The notes under the pieces were generated by a model. It was not told the origin of the DNA and ran no database searches. It saw only the letters and a list, made by a program, of their open reading frames with translations. The position numbers and the translations under genes are program-made. A stretch of 64,000 nt of DNA from a virus: the IMG/VR virus record IMGVR_UViG_3300021142_000004. One strand, 5' to 3'. Of the stretch, positions 25,098 through 34,165 are shown piece after piece; the first letter of the stretch is position 1; the number at the start of each line of letters is the position of its first letter.

Positions 25098-28000
25098 TAG
25101 TTAACAGGTGTAAATGCATTTTTAGGACCGAATCTTTCAATTAATTTATCAACGCCAGTATTACCAGGTCTTAAACCAAAATAAAACATAAATGGTGTGG
25201 ATAAAATTTGTTTAGTAGTATTATATGGGTCTTTTGTTGGATATATACTTAAATCCGTACTATAATCGTTTCCATTATGATAAATAATCGGATCAGTCCA
25301 TGAACCTCCATCACCATTTCTAATATAAACATAACCATCAGTAGGATCTGTTACCGTACCACTATATGCAATTAATAATTTAAAATTTAATGGTGTTTCT
25401 TCATATAAATTAAGAGTATCACTAACACTTACAAAAGTAGGATCTACATTACCACTCATAACAACTATATCAAATTCTTCGGCCAAATTTAACGTTATAC
25501 CTGTTATTGTTTGACCAGAATAATCATAACTTATTGGTGGTAAAAGATATGCATCATTTGGATTTGTTGTTATACCAGTAAAACGATAACCATATGTCAT
25601 ACCTTGTAAATTTTGTACTTGTATATTTCCATAATCAAAAACTTGATATCCATTTCTACCGAACCCATATCCACCTTTATCCCATAAATAAAATGGTACA
25701 GGTTGAGATGATTCTGTTAAATGACCAGGTGCGTTTAAACATTCTCTAATTCTTATTCCATCCTTTTCATATTGTAACGTTATTGGTACTGGTCCATATG
25801 TACCATTTCCTGCAGCATAAAACGGAGAAGGATTATCAATAGGGTCTAAATAACCCATATCATATTCAACATAATGTGCAAGATTCAAATCAAATCCTTC
25901 AATACCAGCTTCACTATTGATTGATATAAGTTGAAGTAAATCCGGTTCAAAAACAGATATATTTGGTAAATAATTATTAATTATTCCATTTGTGAAAAAA
26001 TTCTTAACTGTTGATAATCCAGTCGCATCAGTTGTTGTATCCATCTTATAATTTATTGCAAATGCAACTAGTTCACCAAAACTTTTAAATGATGTTGGTC
26101 CTATTGAACGAGCAACTGAACAATTTGGATCTAACGATGGGTCAGTACAAATTTCTCTAACAAATTCATCTCTTGGACCTAAATCAACAAATGTCGTTGG
26201 ATGTGCAAGTATTTTAATATTATTCGTAGACTCAATACCCCAAGTTCCATTATTATAATATGTTGATCTATAGTACATAACACCTTGTCCTAAATTATTT
26301 TGATTTGGTATATATGTAATTAAATCATGACAAGCTTTAACCCTAGTATTATTACTTTTAAATTTTGCTTTAAATTGTGGAAAATATAACGAACCAGATA
26401 ACCAATTATCCATAAATGAATAATTAACAATACCACCACAAAAAGATATACCAACAACTTTTCTTCTAAACCATTCTCTTAATGCATTCAAATTTTTACC
26501 AGATATTCCCGCTAAAGATGGAACTATCGTAAAAACACCGGATCTAAATTCCGAATAACCTGTTTTAGTTTTTCTATTATAATATTTTGTTCCGATTTCA
26601 CTAAAATTATAATAACTTGGTAATCTAGGTTGTCCACCAATAGACCAAACTTCACCAGCAATGTAATATTCTGGACTTGGTCTATCTATTAATAAATTAG
26701 TTGGTGTTGTTATTGATTTTTCTATTATGCCAGGTGTGTTTGTACTAATACCACTTAAAGGATAATTTTTATTACCATTGCTATATGGTAAAGTAGGAGA
26801 TCCATATGTTGTTGTTTGTCCATCAAACCATAATACTTCATCGGCTATAGATTTATCATATAATCTATTATATATGTTACAACTTTCCAATATTGTAGAA
26901 CCTGTATATTGTTTATTTGTTTTTTTAAACATTCTATCTTCAATATAACCATATGTTGTTCCACTTATTATTGTTCCATTATTAGGTGAATCACCATTAA
27001 ATGTTATACCAAATAAATTTAACATATCATTTTTACTAATTATCATATATGGTGTACCATCAGGATAAATAGTTGTTAAAGGGACATTATTGATGGCAAC
27101 TTCAGTTAATATAGTAACATTACCTTTATAAAAACCAAATATTGAACCACTTGGGTAACCATTTTGTTCAACAAGATAAATTTGATTTGTTTGATTTGTA
27201 TTTGGATCCATACCACCTATAGGACCTTTATTATTAAGATAATATGAAACTTCATTAATTGGTGATCCTGATGGAGAAAGACCTAAATCAATAAAAAATC
27301 TTGGGAAAACTTCACCATTATCCGGGTCGGTAAACTCTTCAGCACTTCCTAAATATGTGTAACCACTTTGTGAAATTTGATATGAACCATTATTTACACA
27401 ACCGGATGCAGTGTAACTAGAATAAACACAATAATCTCTTGCGTTTGTATTAGTTAAAATATTGGAAGTATTACCACTAATATCTTCATTTAAACTAGTC
27501 GTACCTGTACTTAAAAACAAATACATATAATCAGTATCATTATTTCTAAAAGTACTAATACTATTTCCTATAATGTAATTAGATGTATTAGGTACCCAAG
27601 TTTGTAAAATATCAAATTTTAATTCACCTATTTTTGCATAAACACCCGTATTAAATCCTGTGGTATATGACGTATCATCATCTGAACATAATTCACAATC
27701 ATCATAAATTGTTAATGGTAAAACTTTTTGTCCAGCAACACATACATTAAAGGCTGCATTTATAAATTTTTCACCAATTGCGGCAAATGGTCTCCAATTA
27801 AATGGCCAACCAAAATATATTCCATATAATCCCTTTCCGACATCATATAAAAATGTACCAACAAATTCAAAAACAACTAATTTTATAACAGCAAAAACAA
27901 ATGTTATAAATGCAACTAATGTACCTATTAAAATATTAAAATTTAATCCACTATGTTTTGTTGCAAAATTTGTTGGTAATGTGTTAACACTACTTATACA

Positions 28001-29407
28001 ATCTTTTTCTTCGGATGGTACAATATCTTTTATACCGACATACTTATTACTATTATTTGTAATATCACCAGGTAATCTACTGTGGAATGAAGAAACTGTA
28101 TAAACTTTATTATATGTAAATCTATAAAAATAATCTTGGGGATAATAAAACCCTTCATAATTATTTAATATTAAAGAAATCCCATTTGAAGGATATCCTG
28201 AATAGTCTGTTGTCCATGCATATGAATTTAAATCAATACCATTTTCATCATTAAATTCTCTAATATTTGGTACTAAAAAACTTGCTCTTGCCCTAACTCT
28301 AGCCAATCCTTCATCTTTTAATGTGAACCTAAAACGATAACAAGATGAGGTTGGTATACCTTTATTTGGATCATTGGTATATTCATTTTCACCAAATTCA
28401 TTCGTATATAAATAATCCATATTCATCTCAATACTAAATGCAAAAGCACCGTCATCTCCAATGTCTTCATTTAAAATAACTTCTTCTAAATATGGTCTAT
28501 TTAATTCATCTTTTTCCGTTGTAAAACGTATTGCTTCAATTTTACCTTTAGTTGTAGATAAAGTACATTTTCTACCCATTTCTTTTGTGGGCATACAATT
28601 TTTATTTACTGAATGTTTCCCTGTATCAGTAAATGTTCCCCCAATTATTAAAGCCATCGGTTTAATTCTTATACCAATAGAGGATAAATCAAAATCAGTT
28701 CTTGTTATACCAATTCGACATATATCTTGATTTCCCCAAAATGGTGAAACTTGTATTGTTTTATTATATTTAAAAATTTGAGGAAGTGAATCTAAATCTT
28801 CAGATGATTTAAATTGATATGTGTTTTTGAATTGATCGACACCTTTACCTTGTCTAATGAAATCATCGGGTCTTAATGAAAAACAACCAATATCAGATAA
28901 ATCCCCATCAAAATGTATTGTTTGTTGACCTAATGGTACTCCCCATATCATAAAATCACCAGCATCATTTGTTTTAACTGTATATTTATAATATTTTTCA
29001 AATACTTCCAAATATTCTTCACGAGTTAAAATATCTTCTTGATCCGGAAATGTTCCTGTTGGTTCATGTCCTCCATGTTGTTTTCTTGAGGGTAATAGAT
29101 TATAACGATAATTATTATCGTCTTTATCTTCTACTGTGGTATAAGGGTATAAAACTGAAATTACGGGATCATTAACATCCACATCATCTAATGGTACAAA
29201 TATTGAAACTCTTATATTTGGTACACCAAATCCATTGTTTGCAGTTACTCTACCAACAACAACACCATAATCACTACAAAATGATCTATATACGTCTGTT
29301 TGACTAATTTTTAGGGAAAGTATTTCTAATAAGTCATAAGAATTTTCCAAATTTATAGTTAAAAACTGATCTTTACCAATATTAGTTGATATTCTATACT
29401 TATTCAT
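25097..29407 (-). CDS. Large virion/baseplate protein with carboxypeptidase-regulatory-like N-domain and an internal hydrophobic segment
   Basis: GVVVGRV...GVPNIRVSIF...TVKTNDAGDFMIWGVPLG; hydrophobic stretch around aa 490-530. Confidence 0.55.
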   Translation of the reverse strand: MNKYRISTNIGKDQFLTINLENSYDLLEILSLKISQTDVYRSFCSDYGVVVGRVTANNGFGVPNIRVSIFVPLDDVDVNDPVISVLYPYTTVEDKDDNNYRYNLLPSRKQHGGHEPTGTFPDQEDILTREEYLEVFEKYYKYTVKTNDAGDFMIWGVPLGQQTIHFDGDLSDIGCFSLRPDDFIRQGKGVDQFKNTYQFKSSEDLDSLPQIFKYNKTIQVSPFWGNQDICRIGITRTDFDLSSIGIRIKPMALIIGGTFTDTGKHSVNKNCMPTKEMGRKCTLSTTKGKIEAIRFTTEKDELNRPYLEEVILNEDIGDDGAFAFSIEMNMDYLYTNEFGENEYTNDPNKGIPTSSCYRFRFTLKDEGLARVRARASFLVPNIREFNDENGIDLNSYAWTTDYSGYPSNGISLILNNYEGFYYPQDYFYRFTYNKVYTVSSFHSRLPGDITNNSNKYVGIKDIVPSEEKDCISSVNTLPTNFATKHSGLNFNILIGTLVAFITFVFAVIKLVVFEFVGTFLYDVGKGLYGIYFGWPFNWRPFAAIGEKFINAAFNVCVAGQKVLPLTIYDDCELCSDDDTSYTTGFNTGVYAKIGELKFDILQTWVPNTSNYIIGNSISTFRNNDTDYMYLFLSTGTTSLNEDISGNTSNILTNTNARDYCVYSSYTASGCVNNGSYQISQSGYTYLGSAEEFTDPDNGEVFPRFFIDLGLSPSGSPINEVSYYLNNKGPIGGMDPNTNQTNQIYLVEQNGYPSGSIFGFYKGNVTILTEVAINNVPLTTIYPDGTPYMIISKNDMLNLFGITFNGDSPNNGTIISGTTYGYIEDRMFKKTNKQYTGSTILESCNIYNRLYDKSIADEVLWFDGQTTTYGSPTLPYSNGNKNYPLSGISTNTPGIIEKSITTPTNLLIDRPSPEYYIAGEVWSIGGQPRLPSYYNFSEIGTKYYNRKTKTGYSEFRSGVFTIVPSLAGISGKNLNALREWFRRKVVGISFCGGIVNYSFMDNWLSGSLYFPQFKAKFKSNNTRVKACHDLITYIPNQNNLGQGVMYYRSTYYNNGTWGIESTNNIKILAHPTTFVDLGPRDEFVREICTDPSLDPNCSVARSIGPTSFKSFGELVAFAINYKMDTTTDATGLSTVKNFFTNGIINNYLPNISVFEPDLLQLISINSEAGIEGFDLNLAHYVEYDMGYLDPIDNPSPFYAAGNGTYGPVPITLQYEKDGIRIRECLNAPGHLTESSQPVPFYLWDKGGYGFGRNGYQVFDYGNIQVQNLQGMTYGYRFTGITTNPNDAYLLPPISYDYSGQTITGITLNLAEEFDIVVMSGNVDPTFVSVSDTLNLYEETPLNFKLLIAYSGTVTDPTDGYVYIRNGDGGSWTDPIIYHNGNDYSTDLSIYPTKDPYNTTKQILSTPFMFYFGLRPGNTGVDKLIERFGPKNAFTPVN

Positions 29408-30284
29408 TAATTATATATTTTTTTATTATTCGATATACAGAGTTTGGATGTAAATTTACAATTTCACTAATTTCTTTATAAGTTAGTTTATCTTTTAGTT
29501 CTCTTATTTGTTTGTGTTTTTCTATGTCAGAATTAGGTGGAAATCCGTTATTAGTAGTCTCACTAAATCTTTTTAAACAATTTTTACATTTATAATTTTG
29601 TTTTTTTATATTTTTTAAATAAACAAATCCAGCTCGATTTAAATCAATATTTTTACAATGTGGACATTCTAATTTAAAATTGTTATTAAATTCATGAACC
29701 CCATATTTTTTTTGTTTTTCTAAATCTTTATATTCCCATATAAACCCACCAAAAGTTTTACGTTCTTTTCTACAAACCATACCTATATTTGAAGAATTTT
29801 TTAAACCTATTGTAAGTGCAGCAATTTTCATATTTTTAAATTCATTCAATTTATTTCCATTTAAATCATATTGTACTACTGGTTCACCCAGCTCTAATGA
29901 TTTTTTCATTTTAGAATACGTTAATTTTGATTCTTCAGACCATTTATTTCCTAATGTAGTTCCTGCCTTTGGTGTTAAATTAAACCCATTTTTTACAGAA
30001 TTATAAGTATCAATGTAAAATTGTTCTCTTTCTATTAAAAATTTAATATCAATATTTTCTTCAATTATATAAAATCTAAAAGACTCTTCACCATGTTTAT
30101 TCCAAGATCTTTGTAATTTTATGCTAGTGTGTTTTTTATTTTTTAATAAATTAAAATGAACTATTATTCTTTTTTTTAATTTAATAGTTGATCCAATATA
30201 AACTTTGTTGTTTATAATATTTTTTATCATATAAACACAATTATAACTAATAACATTAATTCTTTCTTTAAATATATATTCCAT
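29400..30284 (-). CDS. Free-standing GIY-YIG homing endonuclease with NUMOD1, zinc ribbon and HTH (likely start MEYIF at 30284)
   Basis: CVYMIKNIINNKVYIGST, RE..YI..YN..GFN, PVVQYDLNGNKLNEF...GGFIWEY, CPHC...CKNC and a terminal HTH. Confidence 0.88.
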   Translation of the reverse strand: MEYIFKERINVISYNCVYMIKNIINNKVYIGSTIKLKKRIIVHFNLLKNKKHTSIKLQRSWNKHGEESFRFYIIEENIDIKFLIEREQFYIDTYNSVKNGFNLTPKAGTTLGNKWSEESKLTYSKMKKSLELGEPVVQYDLNGNKLNEFKNMKIAALTIGLKNSSNIGMVCRKERKTFGGFIWEYKDLEKQKKYGVHEFNNNFKLECPHCKNIDLNRAGFVYLKNIKKQNYKCKNCLKRFSETTNNGFPPNSDIEKHKQIRELKDKLTYKEISEIVNLHPNSVYRIIKKYIINE

Positions 30285-30314
30285 AATTATAAATATATAA
30301 AATTTCAAAAAAAC

Positions 30315-30428
30315 CTAATGTCTGTTTAAACTTAAAATTTCAAGAATGTCGAAATTTTGTTTTAGTTCTACGGTAATATTTTGATCTACACCAATATTGG
30401 TGTAAATTCTATGTTTTTGTATACCCAT
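30315..30428 (-). pseudogene. Orphaned 37-aa copy of the N-terminus of the 25097-29407 protein
   Basis: MGIQKHRIYTNIGVDQNITVELKQNFDILEILSLNRH* compared with MNKYRISTNIGKDQFLTINLENSYDLLEILSLK. Confidence 0.85.
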
Positions 30429-30484
30429 ATTTATATAAATAGAAAAAAATTAATTTTCTAATTTTAATATAAATAATTTTAAGA

Positions 30485-32317
30485 TCAATATGTAGTCGTT
30501 CCTAAAGTTTTTAACCTAACTTTTATATCGGTATTTGGTATTCTAATTTGAAATATTTGATTTGACTTCATAAAAATAGTCATATCTTGTTGTTGAATTT
30601 CCATTGTTATAGAGTCAACAAAATCTTGTGCAACTTGAGATGTAGAATAATTACCACCAATTAAATTATAAACTCTAACATCAACCACATTAACCACACC
30701 ATTAACACTACCTAATTGTCTAATTAAATCACCAACAAATAATGGGTCACCCATTTTTCTTTTTGTAATATCGAAATAAGTTATTGTATCATTAATACAT
30801 GTTCTAACAATATCAGTTTGATTTGAGTTTTTGTCTATTATTAAGTCAATTTGTAAACCTAAATCAATTACTTCACCACTAACAATATCCAAATAATCAT
30901 TTATCATTCTATATTCAGAAAGGTATGTTAAAATATTATTTTTTAATGTGTTTGAAACGACATCAGTTAAATTACCTAATTCATCATATGATAATAATTT
31001 AATTTGAATCTTATTATCAACTTCCATTACATTTACCTTAGCAGGAGCACCAAATGTTGATGGCATTGTTTCTATTAGTGTTTTATAATCATTTAATGTT
31101 ACTGCCCTGTCTTGTGCAGCAAAATTATATGCAACCATATTTCTCATTTCTTCAACTGTTGGTTGGTCAGCACCCCCTACTGCTGGTGTTACATTTGTTA
31201 CATTTAATGATTGTGTGACTTGATCATTAACACTTGAATTTGGTCCTTGTACCGCAAAGTCAATATCGTCCACACTAGTTATAACATTAACACCTAAATT
31301 AGAATCTTTACCACCACCAATTCTATATTGAACAAATAATGTCGTTCCTACTTTTGGTGTTGCACCTAATGATAAATTATTAAGATATGAACCCAAGGAA
31401 ACTCTCATATTTCCTGTCATATAATCATCTAAATTAGATAATGGGTCAACAGAACCAGAACCAAATGTTAAAGAAAAATAACCCTGTGGGGTATATTCTG
31501 TAACAAATTTATTTGTAACAGGTAAATAAACACCAGATTTAAAATTTTGTGTATCTGATGCAGATGTTGGATCAGGTACAAATACTTTATCTTGTATCAT
31601 TGTCTTAACTTCATACCATTTGTTTTGTGAAGAATAAAATTCTGATGATGTTGGGTCAGCATTAAATGATGTACCTTCCTTATGTATAACAGAAGTAACA
31701 CCTAATACATTTTGTTCAGGTAAATATAGTTTTAAAAATGGTTTTTGATCTAAATTTGTAATTACTCTTCTATAAATTTTTGTAATACCATTAACAACCG
31801 GTTCTCTTTTAGTAATAGTATATGATATTAATTTATTATTGTTATCAAAATTTGGTATCTTTAAACGATTTGATTCACCCCTATCATTAAATGGATTTGA
31901 AAAATCAATATCATTAATTGTTTCGAATATTTGTCCACCACCAGAAACTTGTGCACCTGTTTTTAATACACCCAAATATCTACCGTCTTCTTTATCTCCT
32001 CTAACAGGAACATTAATTGAAAAATCACATAAGGCAACTGAAGGTCTTAAACCTGGTATTCTTATTCCATATGTTTTTGCAATGTGAAATAATGATTGTG
32101 TTTGTTGTGCAAAATCCAACATTGTTTCTTGCCAAACCCTATCAATATGAAAATGTAAATTATCCGCAACTGCGGCATTTAAATCCAATAATACTGAATA
32201 TATTGAAGCATCATTAGTATTACCCACTAAATTTGGGTAATAATCTGTTGTTAAGTTAACTAATTCTTGTCTTAATCCCGCAAAATCACGAACTGCGTAT
32301 GATATTTTTTTACTCAT
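30485..32317 (-). CDS. Baseplate wedge protein (T4 gp6 / baseplate J-like)
   Basis: RDFAGLRQEL, YRIGGG, GGAD...E.R, QDRAVTLNDY motifs. Confidence 0.88.
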   Translation of the reverse strand: MSKKISYAVRDFAGLRQELVNLTTDYYPNLVGNTNDASIYSVLLDLNAAVADNLHFHIDRVWQETMLDFAQQTQSLFHIAKTYGIRIPGLRPSVALCDFSINVPVRGDKEDGRYLGVLKTGAQVSGGGQIFETINDIDFSNPFNDRGESNRLKIPNFDNNNKLISYTITKREPVVNGITKIYRRVITNLDQKPFLKLYLPEQNVLGVTSVIHKEGTSFNADPTSSEFYSSQNKWYEVKTMIQDKVFVPDPTSASDTQNFKSGVYLPVTNKFVTEYTPQGYFSLTFGSGSVDPLSNLDDYMTGNMRVSLGSYLNNLSLGATPKVGTTLFVQYRIGGGKDSNLGVNVITSVDDIDFAVQGPNSSVNDQVTQSLNVTNVTPAVGGADQPTVEEMRNMVAYNFAAQDRAVTLNDYKTLIETMPSTFGAPAKVNVMEVDNKIQIKLLSYDELGNLTDVVSNTLKNNILTYLSEYRMINDYLDIVSGEVIDLGLQIDLIIDKNSNQTDIVRTCINDTITYFDITKRKMGDPLFVGDLIRQLGSVNGVVNVVDVRVYNLIGGNYSTSQVAQDFVDSITMEIQQQDMTIFMKSNQIFQIRIPNTDIKVRLKTLGTTTY

Positions 32318-32809: not shown

Positions 32810-34165
32810 TGACATCCTATCATTGTCTAAAAAACAATAAAATTACCAATTGAGGAATGGTTATTACAAACATTAAAGTTCATAATTACATTAGTATAAT
32901 CTAATGGCTCTGTCATAGAAGCAAGGTGATTGTCATAATATCTTTTCAAAATATTAATAGCCGAATTTAAATCTCTATCTATTTCGACTTTATCACTTAA
33001 TTTAACAATTCTATCTTTTAATTCTACCTTATTCTTAAATATTTTTCCTGTTAAAGAATTAAGTTGTGTTGTATTTCTTTCATTTATCTTAATTAAATCA
33101 CATTGTTTATTTTGTAATTTATATTTAAGAAATTCTAAGAACATATTAATATTAGATTCATTAAATGATTTTCTAATACTTTTTTTATTCTTATTAATAC
33201 CTTCTATTGACATTAAAGATTTAATTGTTAATTCACCTACTACAATTGTTTTGTAGTTCATATTCACTAATTGTTTACTCTGAATATGTAGAGTTTCTTT
33301 TATTTGAGTATTTTTTTTAGAATATAATTTTTTCTTAACCTTATTTAGTTTATTGTAATTTTTACTTCCTTTTTCTTTTTTACTTAATTTAGATTTAATT
33401 TCATTAATTTGTTTACCAAAATACTGATTAATCTTTTTAGCTTTATTCTTTAAGATAAATACATTACCTTTATTATCCACACCAGTTCCTAAATTTTTTA
33501 ATCCCAAATCAAACGCCAATACCTTAGTATTAATTATAACATTATCATTATATGATATTGTGTCGTTAATCACAATATCACATAACCATTTATTATTATT
33601 ATTATTAAATTTAACACAAATTTGTTTAATATTTAATTCTGATACATTAGTTAGGTTAGATTTATAGTTAAATAATATTTTATTTATTTGTATTTTATTA
33701 TCTTTAAATACCCAACCTGATTGGTTAAAAACTAAGGTATGATATCTTCCTAATTCTTTTTGTTTAGGCGGTTTTGCTGTATTATCTTTTTTAATTAGGG
33801 TAAAGAATGATTGATATGATTGGGAGACTTCGGTTGCAATTGTTTGTATTGCCTTTGCGTTAAGTAATTTCCATTCTGGTTTTGTTACATTTTTTAATTT
33901 TGGAAGAAGATTAATTAATTCGAATTTTGAATATATTTTTTTATTTATTTCGTAATATTTTTGTTGAATATCAATAAGAGTATTCCATACATCCATTCTA
34001 ATATTCGACAACTGGTTAAGTTGTAATATTTGTTCTTGAGTTGGAAATAATCTAATTGAGTATGTTTTCATATTTTATATAAATAACTTATTACTTATTT
34101 ACATAAATATAAATTAAATTGTGAAAAAATTGGTTCTGTGGGAAATTTGACTATATTTTCTGAAT
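32810..34165 (-). mobile_element. Putative non-autonomous IS200/IS605-family element (ends approximate)
   Basis: tnpB followed by ...GATAGGATGTCA (32810-32821), which resembles family right ends; an imperfect 13-bp hairpin lies at 34074-34107. Confidence 0.55.
32827..34071 (-). CDS. tnpB: TnpB-family RNA-guided endonuclease (IS200/IS605; solo, IS1341-like)
   Basis: KTYSIRLFPT HTH start, RuvC-I AFDLGLK, RuvC-II VVGEL and RuvC-III DRDLNSAINI; no adjacent tnpA. Confidence 0.92.
   Translation of the reverse strand: MKTYSIRLFPTQEQILQLNQLSNIRMDVWNTLIDIQQKYYEINKKIYSKFELINLLPKLKNVTKPEWKLLNAKAIQTIATEVSQSYQSFFTLIKKDNTAKPPKQKELGRYHTLVFNQSGWVFKDNKIQINKILFNYKSNLTNVSELNIKQICVKFNNNNNKWLCDIVINDTISYNDNVIINTKVLAFDLGLKNLGTGVDNKGNVFILKNKAKKINQYFGKQINEIKSKLSKKEKGSKNYNKLNKVKKKLYSKKNTQIKETLHIQSKQLVNMNYKTIVVGELTIKSLMSIEGINKNKKSIRKSFNESNINMFLEFLKYKLQNKQCDLIKINERNTTQLNSLTGKIFKNKVELKDRIVKLSDKVEIDRDLNSAINILKRYYDNHLASMTEPLDYTNVIMNFNVCNNHSSIGNFIVF

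Follow-up and report, generated by a model that had tools for sequence, protein, structure and literature searches.

The viral DNA considered here is a stretch of 64,000 nucleotides (nt) from IMG/VR virus record IMGVR_UViG_3300021142_000004, called the window below, in which a homing endonuclease gene (HEG) of the GIY-YIG family lies between a gp6-like baseplate wedge gene and a large gene. The start of that large gene is present twice, once on either side of the HEG. Upstream is a short, previously unannotated open reading frame (ORF) that we call the orphan, and downstream is the complete start of the large gene itself, the first 32 codons of which we call the working copy. A preliminary description of this DNA had reported these features, and all of them are present where it placed them, on the minus strand, so that as a description it was accurate in every particular. 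On our best reading of these sequences, the orphan is a scar, a dead gene start rather than a working part, left behind when a HEG entered a conserved structural gene.

Residues 3 to 34 of the orphan align without gaps to residues 1 to 32 of the large protein, with 18 of the 32 positions identical (BLASTP E 5e-12), and at the DNA level the two copies share 56 of 96 nt. This bears out the earlier proposal of a complete, diverged gene start downstream of the HEG, and these two are the only copies of the segment in the whole window. Only the downstream copy is continuous with the body of the large gene; the native-type end remains upstream as a remnant. Homology between the orphan and intact alleles extends for 34 codons and 2 nt (30428-30325), after which come three out-of-register codons and a TAG, in agreement with the preliminary description, which had placed the HEG cassette about 34 codons into the gene. 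The TAG stands 30 nt before the HEG ATG, and the orphan of the window is not in frame-fusion with the HEG. At the other end of the cassette, the large-gene ATG (29407) overlaps the HEG stop by 8 nt (29407-29400). Codons 9-14 of the orphan contain a perfect palindrome of 18 nt (30387-30404) that is absent from the working copy; on the plus strand it was marked as resembling a terminator, and it may be due to chance.

The same junction can be followed in relatives without the endonuclease. At 69 IMG/VR loci that span it, the large gene starts about 49-62 nt after the gp6-like stop, and the orphan starts at 56 nt. Since these loci begin their large gene there, behind the same 11-nt motif, the orphan occupies the start position of HEG-less genomes. 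The motif is kept in aligned relatives and is 100% identical in L072, the closest HEG-bearing relative described below. Among HEG-less starts the best matches to the orphan reach 28 of 32 identical residues (e.g., L024). None of the 69 loci gave a tblastn match to the HEG or contained a second copy of the gene start, and HEG-less relatives with both copies, which the preliminary description had named as evidence against its own proposal, therefore number 0 of 69. The duplication is found in 3 of the 6 HEG lineages with readable context. It was observed at HEG-bearing loci only and is not due to chance. The further expectation that HEG-less starts would resemble the orphan held for 66 of the 69 loci, which are closer to the orphan than to the working copy, and failed for the two nearest, L062 and L063, which carry the working-copy type.

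Relatives that do carry the endonuclease fall into several arrangements. L072 (an ENA assembly) and L073 (a Logan assembly) have the layout of the window at 97% nt identity, and because these independent assemblies share it, the layout is not an assembly artefact. The orphans of the window and L072 differ at 2 positions, both synonymous. At L092 and L093 the HEG lies directly upstream of a complete large gene, its stop overlapping or abutting the large-gene ATG, and there is no orphan; the HEGs of L092, L093 and L096 are 50-60% identical and sit at the same junction, likewise without an orphan. A third arrangement appears in P0124 and P0126, whose HEGs are 54% identical and which were called as single proteins, with 28 and 29 codons of the large-gene start in frame with the HEG. 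The orphan part of P0124 is identical at 28 of 28 residues to the start of the full-length protein P0115. With the window, P0124 and P0126, whose stranded starts end at codons 34, 28 and 29, a stranded start arose or was kept in at least three lineages.

In a representative search the whole HEG family falls into one 50% cluster; a metagenome scan for HEG relatives added L093 and L096 but not the contigs of P0124 and P0126; IMG/VR searched with the window HEG, P0124 and P0126 returned only distant GIY-YIG genes; and a search for further orphan-HEG fusions returned only P0124 and P0126 themselves together with truncated large proteins. A candidate "mini-orphan" in the L093 spacer was rejected because its ATG falls within a conserved spacer element that is also present in L096 and in HEG-less loci. 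At L096 (2932-3203) the HEG is decayed: residues 1-31 and 232-290 are left, residues 32-231, with the catalytic domain, are lost, and a native spacer with its promoter-like motif stands directly before the ATG.

Table 1. Features of the endonuclease locus and its upstream neighbors, with positions in the window.
Feature	Position	Strand	Remarks
gp25-like gene	32815-32321	minus	PF04965; directly upstream of the gp6-like gene
gp6-like baseplate wedge gene, 610 residues	32317-30485	minus	PHROG 219, PHROG 6
Spacer, 56 nt	30484-30429	minus	native intergenic; same length class in the 69 HEG-less loci
Conserved 11-nt motif containing TATTTAT, promoter-like	30445-30435	minus	in the spacer
Orphan ORF, 37 codons plus TAG	30428-30315	minus	starts at the ancestral start position
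HEG leader, 40 nt	30324-30285	minus	homologous to the pre-HEG sequence of L072, L092 and L093
GIY-YIG endonuclease gene (HEG), 294 residues, 885 nt	30284-29400 (conserved ATG 30284, stop 29402-29400)	minus	PF01541
Large gene, 1436 residues	29407-25097	minus	complete; first 32 codons (29407-29312) are the working copy

The endonuclease is probably intact and active, judging from its conserved residues and domains. It matches PF01541 above the curated cut-off (E 2.9e-13), the catalytic domain of I-TevI (PDB 1mk0/1ln0; E 1.1e-16) and the homing endonuclease family PHROG 7168. Of its C-terminal modules, HTH_23 reaches the cut-off and NUMOD1 is a weak match below it. The Y, YxG, R, H, E and N positions are invariant across 8 members of the family, and these would correspond to numbered residues of I-TevI; equally invariant in the 8 members are four cysteines in a CxxC...CxxC pattern (a Cys4 zinc finger). 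Between the window and L072 the HEG differs at 12 of 885 nt, 7 of the changes being synonymous and 5 non-synonymous. Eleven of the 12 fall in the DNA-binding region of zinc finger and helix-turn-helix (29540-29733), and none in the first 550 nt. Presence and absence of the HEG alternate at one fixed junction, with 69 loci lacking it and L072/L073, L092, L093 and L096 carrying it. Because the HEG also occurs by itself, with no orphan, at L092, L093 and L096, we take the gene to be free-standing and its home to be the junction of the gp6-like and large genes; a free-standing, I-TevI-like GIY-YIG homing endonuclease specialized for that junction is the best explanation of these comparisons.

The genes on either side of the junction appear to belong to a baseplate or tail module. 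The gp6-like gene matches PHROG 219 and PHROG 6, both "baseplate wedge subunit," with E values of 3.6e-18 and 6e-15, and the last 200 residues of its product are 65-91% identical in all relatives; the gene would serve as the left homology arm for homing. The large protein has more than 3,600 metagenomic homologues, on contigs of up to 310-354 kb, in which the first 500 residues are conserved. It has no Pfam or PHROG match and a weak Atlas lead to CarboxypepD_reg-like domains, and it is by synteny that we assign its gene, provisionally, to the baseplate or tail module. Searches of the region with blastn and tblastn against 50,697 GenBank phage records found no match. Compared with L072, the window is nearly unchanged across the gp6-like gene and the first 700 nt of the large gene, and divergence sets in at about 28700. 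Between 27953 and 25217 of the window only short or weak (67-85%) matches to L072 remain, the proteins being 1436 and 1301 residues long, and 98% identity returns from 25217 (window 25217-28700 against L072 9320-11786). It looks as though the distal part of a baseplate or fibre protein, probably receptor-binding, has been swapped between otherwise near-identical phages. Farther upstream, a solo TnpB/OrfB_IS605 gene (32827-34071) lies between ribonucleotide reductase pieces and the gp25-like gene, and it is in the same place in L072/L073.

How did a dead gene start come to precede the HEG? We think it likely that homing by one-sided, illegitimate break repair joined a cut gene to the HEG cassette, a cassette that always stands before a complete gene start. 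On this model the enzyme would cut HEG-less alleles within the conserved 5' end of the large gene, at a predicted site around codons 28-35. In ordinary homing the break would be resected into the gp6-like gene and repaired from a HEG-bearing, co-infecting phage, with the HEG and the donor's gene start copied in together. Where a scar was formed, the right side of the break would instead have recombined homologously; the left end, which retained the promoter and the first 28-34 codons, would have been attached to the cassette's left edge by an illegitimate join. In the window this left end would comprise codons 1-34, and the join would lie at TTAAA, a short sequence common to orphan and leader. 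TTAAA forms the end of the orphan, and the leader of L092, which there constitutes the entire spacer after the gp6-like stop, begins with the same five bases at the stop codon, which makes a microhomology join plausible. The outcome would be the layout that is observed, namely, in order, an old promoter, a dead start of 34 codons, the leader of the cassette, the HEG and then a complete start of the gene. The large gene would probably be transcribed from the old promoter, the leader or both, and its translation would begin at the ATG that overlaps the HEG stop. The 11-nt motif may be that old promoter; it is not enriched across the window, and scans of the window for sigma-70 promoters and terminators were uninformative. 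An alternative placement of the junction was considered, in which the orphan would extend as far as approximately codon 41 and carry a deletion of 11 nt. In its favor is a match of 8 nt, but to L062 only, and gapped alignments are noisy in AT-rich DNA.

Since the working copy holds the whole presumed target uninterrupted, it would have to be immune to cleavage through sequence differences. The preliminary description had gone further and called the downstream start recoded for cleavage resistance, which the comparison of alleles does not sustain: HEG-less alleles are equally variable at the same synonymous sites, and the divergence of the two copies is explained by different ancestry. Nor is a replacement start needed as a special device that lets a HEG live inside a gene, as had also been suggested, when the plain position of the HEG is already directly upstream of a complete gene at L092, L093 and L096. 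That plain position needs no orphan, and so the orphan looks like a by-product of imprecise homing and not like design.

Several observations weigh against a scar produced in this way. At the synonymous sites of codons 25-36, no pattern distinguishes HEG-linked from HEG-less alleles. The 69 HEG-less loci represent about 30 distinct starts and are not independent, and P0124 and P0126 are known here from protein sequences alone. The TTAAA join is drawn from L092, which stands in for the actual donor and has a HEG that is only 60% identical. The nearest HEG-less relatives, L062 and L063, have the downstream type of start and not the orphan type, and because they do, the orphan may not be the native start of this lineage.

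L062 and L063 deserve a closer look in this regard. They share about 90% nt identity with the window across the gp6-like gene and spacer, and the start of their large gene is of the working-copy type, with the same unusual codons for EILSL. L062 matches the working copy at 49 of 50 nt over codons 15-31 (29363-29314), a similarity that decays further into the gene, while its identity to the orphan falls across the orphan from 43 of 50 to 15 of 38. When IMG/VR was scanned for exact occurrences of the unusual 17-nt string of codons that covers the EILSL motif, 2 matches were on the L062/L063 contigs, and the other 13 are assumed to be chance. Among about 190 starts examined, the working-copy type is rare, occurring only in the window, L072/L073 and L062/L063. 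The spacer and first six codons of L062 (5995-6110), as of L063, are of the ordinary type, and from codon 7 on the sequence is near-identical to the HEG-linked working copy, the match in the window gene running from codon 5. L062/L063 are candidates for an allele that lost the HEG or was repaired without it.

Three histories could account for these relatives. In L062 the two repeats may have recombined and so eliminated the HEG; L062 may have been cut and then repaired from the donor's contiguous downstream copy without the HEG, which would yield an immune HEG-less allele; or the working type may be native to the clade, with the orphan and HEG block imported from a donor already scarred. The last of these reverses the polarity of the exchange: the downstream start would be native, and ordinary homologous recombination with the scarred donor would have brought in one segment made up of the leader and the HEG, preceded by most of the orphan and followed by the first four codons. 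The pattern of identity in L062/L063, about 90% through the gp6-like gene and spacer, nearly complete over working-copy codons 15-31 and collapsing across the orphan, is what such an import would leave. The same alleles, however, can be derived equally well by HEG loss between repeats or by HEG-less repair from a donor copy, and the rarity of the downstream type fits a HEG-linked origin. Because this rare start type is tied to the HEG, the first two histories are favored over the third, and we consider the reversed polarity improbable, with some chance of being correct. Whichever history applies, one kind of event accounts for the scar.

We give far less credence to the possibility that the orphan has been kept for a function, as an upstream ORF that sets HEG translation or as a 37-residue assembly peptide. 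Retention of the native promoter-like motif and ATG, the synonymous nature of both differences from L072, and the in-frame continuation of the fragment into the HEG in P0124 and P0126 would all suit a functional product. Two substitutions carry no statistical weight, however, three HEG loci have no orphan at all, the lengths vary (28, 29 and 34 codons), and the copy in the window ends in three out-of-register codons and a stop.

Splicing is the least credible account of the locus that retains any probability, and we assign it next to none. The orphan would be exon 1 of a gene split by a group I intron, and splicing would remove the HEG together with the second copy and join the orphan to codon 33 onward. 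HEG relatives do bear source names such as "group I intron endonuclease," and I-TevI is itself intron-encoded, but the interval 28800-30800 has no Rfam match at E up to 10, and the 917 nt between the copies, made up of the 885-nt ORF and the 40-nt leader, leave no room for a ribozyme core. The downstream start is complete with its own ATG, moreover, and plain HEG loci have no upstream exon. The preliminary description had likewise proposed an arrangement without an intron, and with only 40 non-coding nt between the copies, splicing is indeed unlikely. An intein is excluded by the orphan stop codon and the separate HEG ATG.

If the orphan is a scar of one-sided repair, the leader that separates it from the HEG may preserve something older. 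Ahead of the HEG ATG, this leader carries a T-run, GAAATT and a second motif resembling TATTTAT, and the 40 nt between orphan and HEG align as homologous to the sequence preceding the HEG in L072, L092 and L093. The P0126 leader, read in frame, matches gene codons 21-30 at 7 of 10 positions, the 3 mismatches all being Leu to Phe. The leaders of the window, L092 and L093 have their best match in the same gene register, with DNA-level p values of 0.06, 0.57 and 0.31, none of them significant. We hold loosely to the idea that the leader may derive from an earlier stranded start that has since decayed, a reading for which the P0126 protein sequence is the main support, or else be a target-like operator of the kind known for I-TevI. 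A more ambitious version, which we offer tentatively and regard as somewhat doubtful, is that the HEG family re-invades the same 5' segment repeatedly, each round being able to strand a fresh start. The leader would then be the fossil of an earlier stranded start, kept as a promoter or target-mimicking operator; the window would hold three generations, a working copy, a fresh orphan and an old relic; and the L062-like relatives would be survivors repaired from the donor's immune copy without the HEG.

If the orphan is indeed such a scar, the locus is a natural record of how a free-standing HEG can invade a conserved structural gene of a phage with neither intron nor intein, and of the residue that imprecise homing may leave. 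The orphan end points at codons 28, 29 and 34 would delimit the probable cut site, so that the enzyme's target can be tested directly. There is also a consequence for annotation, in that a short unannotated ORF repeating the start of a nearby gene beside a HEG would be better read as a homing scar than as a new gene, and gene calling can merge a scar of this kind with the HEG, as in P0124 and P0126.

Known systems offer partial parallels. The free-standing HEGs of T4-like phages (the seg and mob genes) practice intronless homing (PMC2988022), and they resemble the present case in being intergenic GIY-YIG ORFs that are present or absent among syntenic phages, with a frame overlapping the neighboring gene; here, as there, cleavage would be expected in a flanking conserved gene away from the insertion point, with the donor flank copied along. 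They differ in that mobE in Aeh1 nrdA and mobA in T4 gene 60 split a gene into two working pieces (PMC2988022), and we found no T4-type case described in which a duplicate of the neighboring gene's start is stranded, nor any published phage case of a HEG with a stranded gene start. For the joining event itself, the study of Parker, Belisle and Belfort (1999), as it is related in PMC2988022, provides a precedent in T4 intron homing, where illegitimate one-sided double-strand-break repair occurred at microhomologies. There too, homology is available on one side of the break only; microhomology provides the second junction, and entry thereby becomes possible at sites unlike the donor. The difference is that theirs was an engineered td intron experiment, whereas ours would be a natural product read from its sequence.

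I-TevI provides the parallel for the leader, since it represses its own expression through an operator that mimics the homing site (PMC2988022). The window HEG has a related catalytic domain and a similar tail of zinc finger and helix-turn-helix, and its leader resembles part of the presumed target gene. I-TevI is intron-encoded, however, and the operator role of the window leader is a guess, as the leader may instead be an old relic.

The closest published analogue of the layout, as a mirror image, is the gene hybrid formed by mobile endonuclease ORFs (mORFs) in fungal mitochondria. In Allomyces macrogynus atp6 and in Glomus sp. atp6, atp9, cox2 and nad3, an endonuclease ORF enters together with a foreign C-terminal gene segment and the native C-terminus is left downstream (PMC3630166). 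The foreign, diverged end is the one expressed, the duplicated ends diverge far more from each other than from relatives, and the endonuclease in atp9 is of the GIY-YIG type (PMC3630166). Both systems thus combine an endonuclease ORF with a second, diverged copy of a gene end that takes the place of the native one, while the native end persists beside the element as a remnant. In the mitochondrial hybrids it is the 3' end that is replaced and the remnant lies downstream, whereas in the window it is the 5' end, and the remnant, together with the promoter, is on the upstream side; the setting is an organelle in one case and a phage in the other; and some mORFs are fused in frame with their host gene, which the window HEG is not, although P0124 and P0126 are in frame. 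What appears to be new here is a 5' version of the homing scar with a replacement gene start in a phage, recurring with different end points, possibly nested, and accompanied by a HEG-less relative that carries the HEG-linked allele. Set beside its mirror image in the mORF hybrids, it suggests that an endonuclease plus a spare gene end may be a general solution across phages and organelles.

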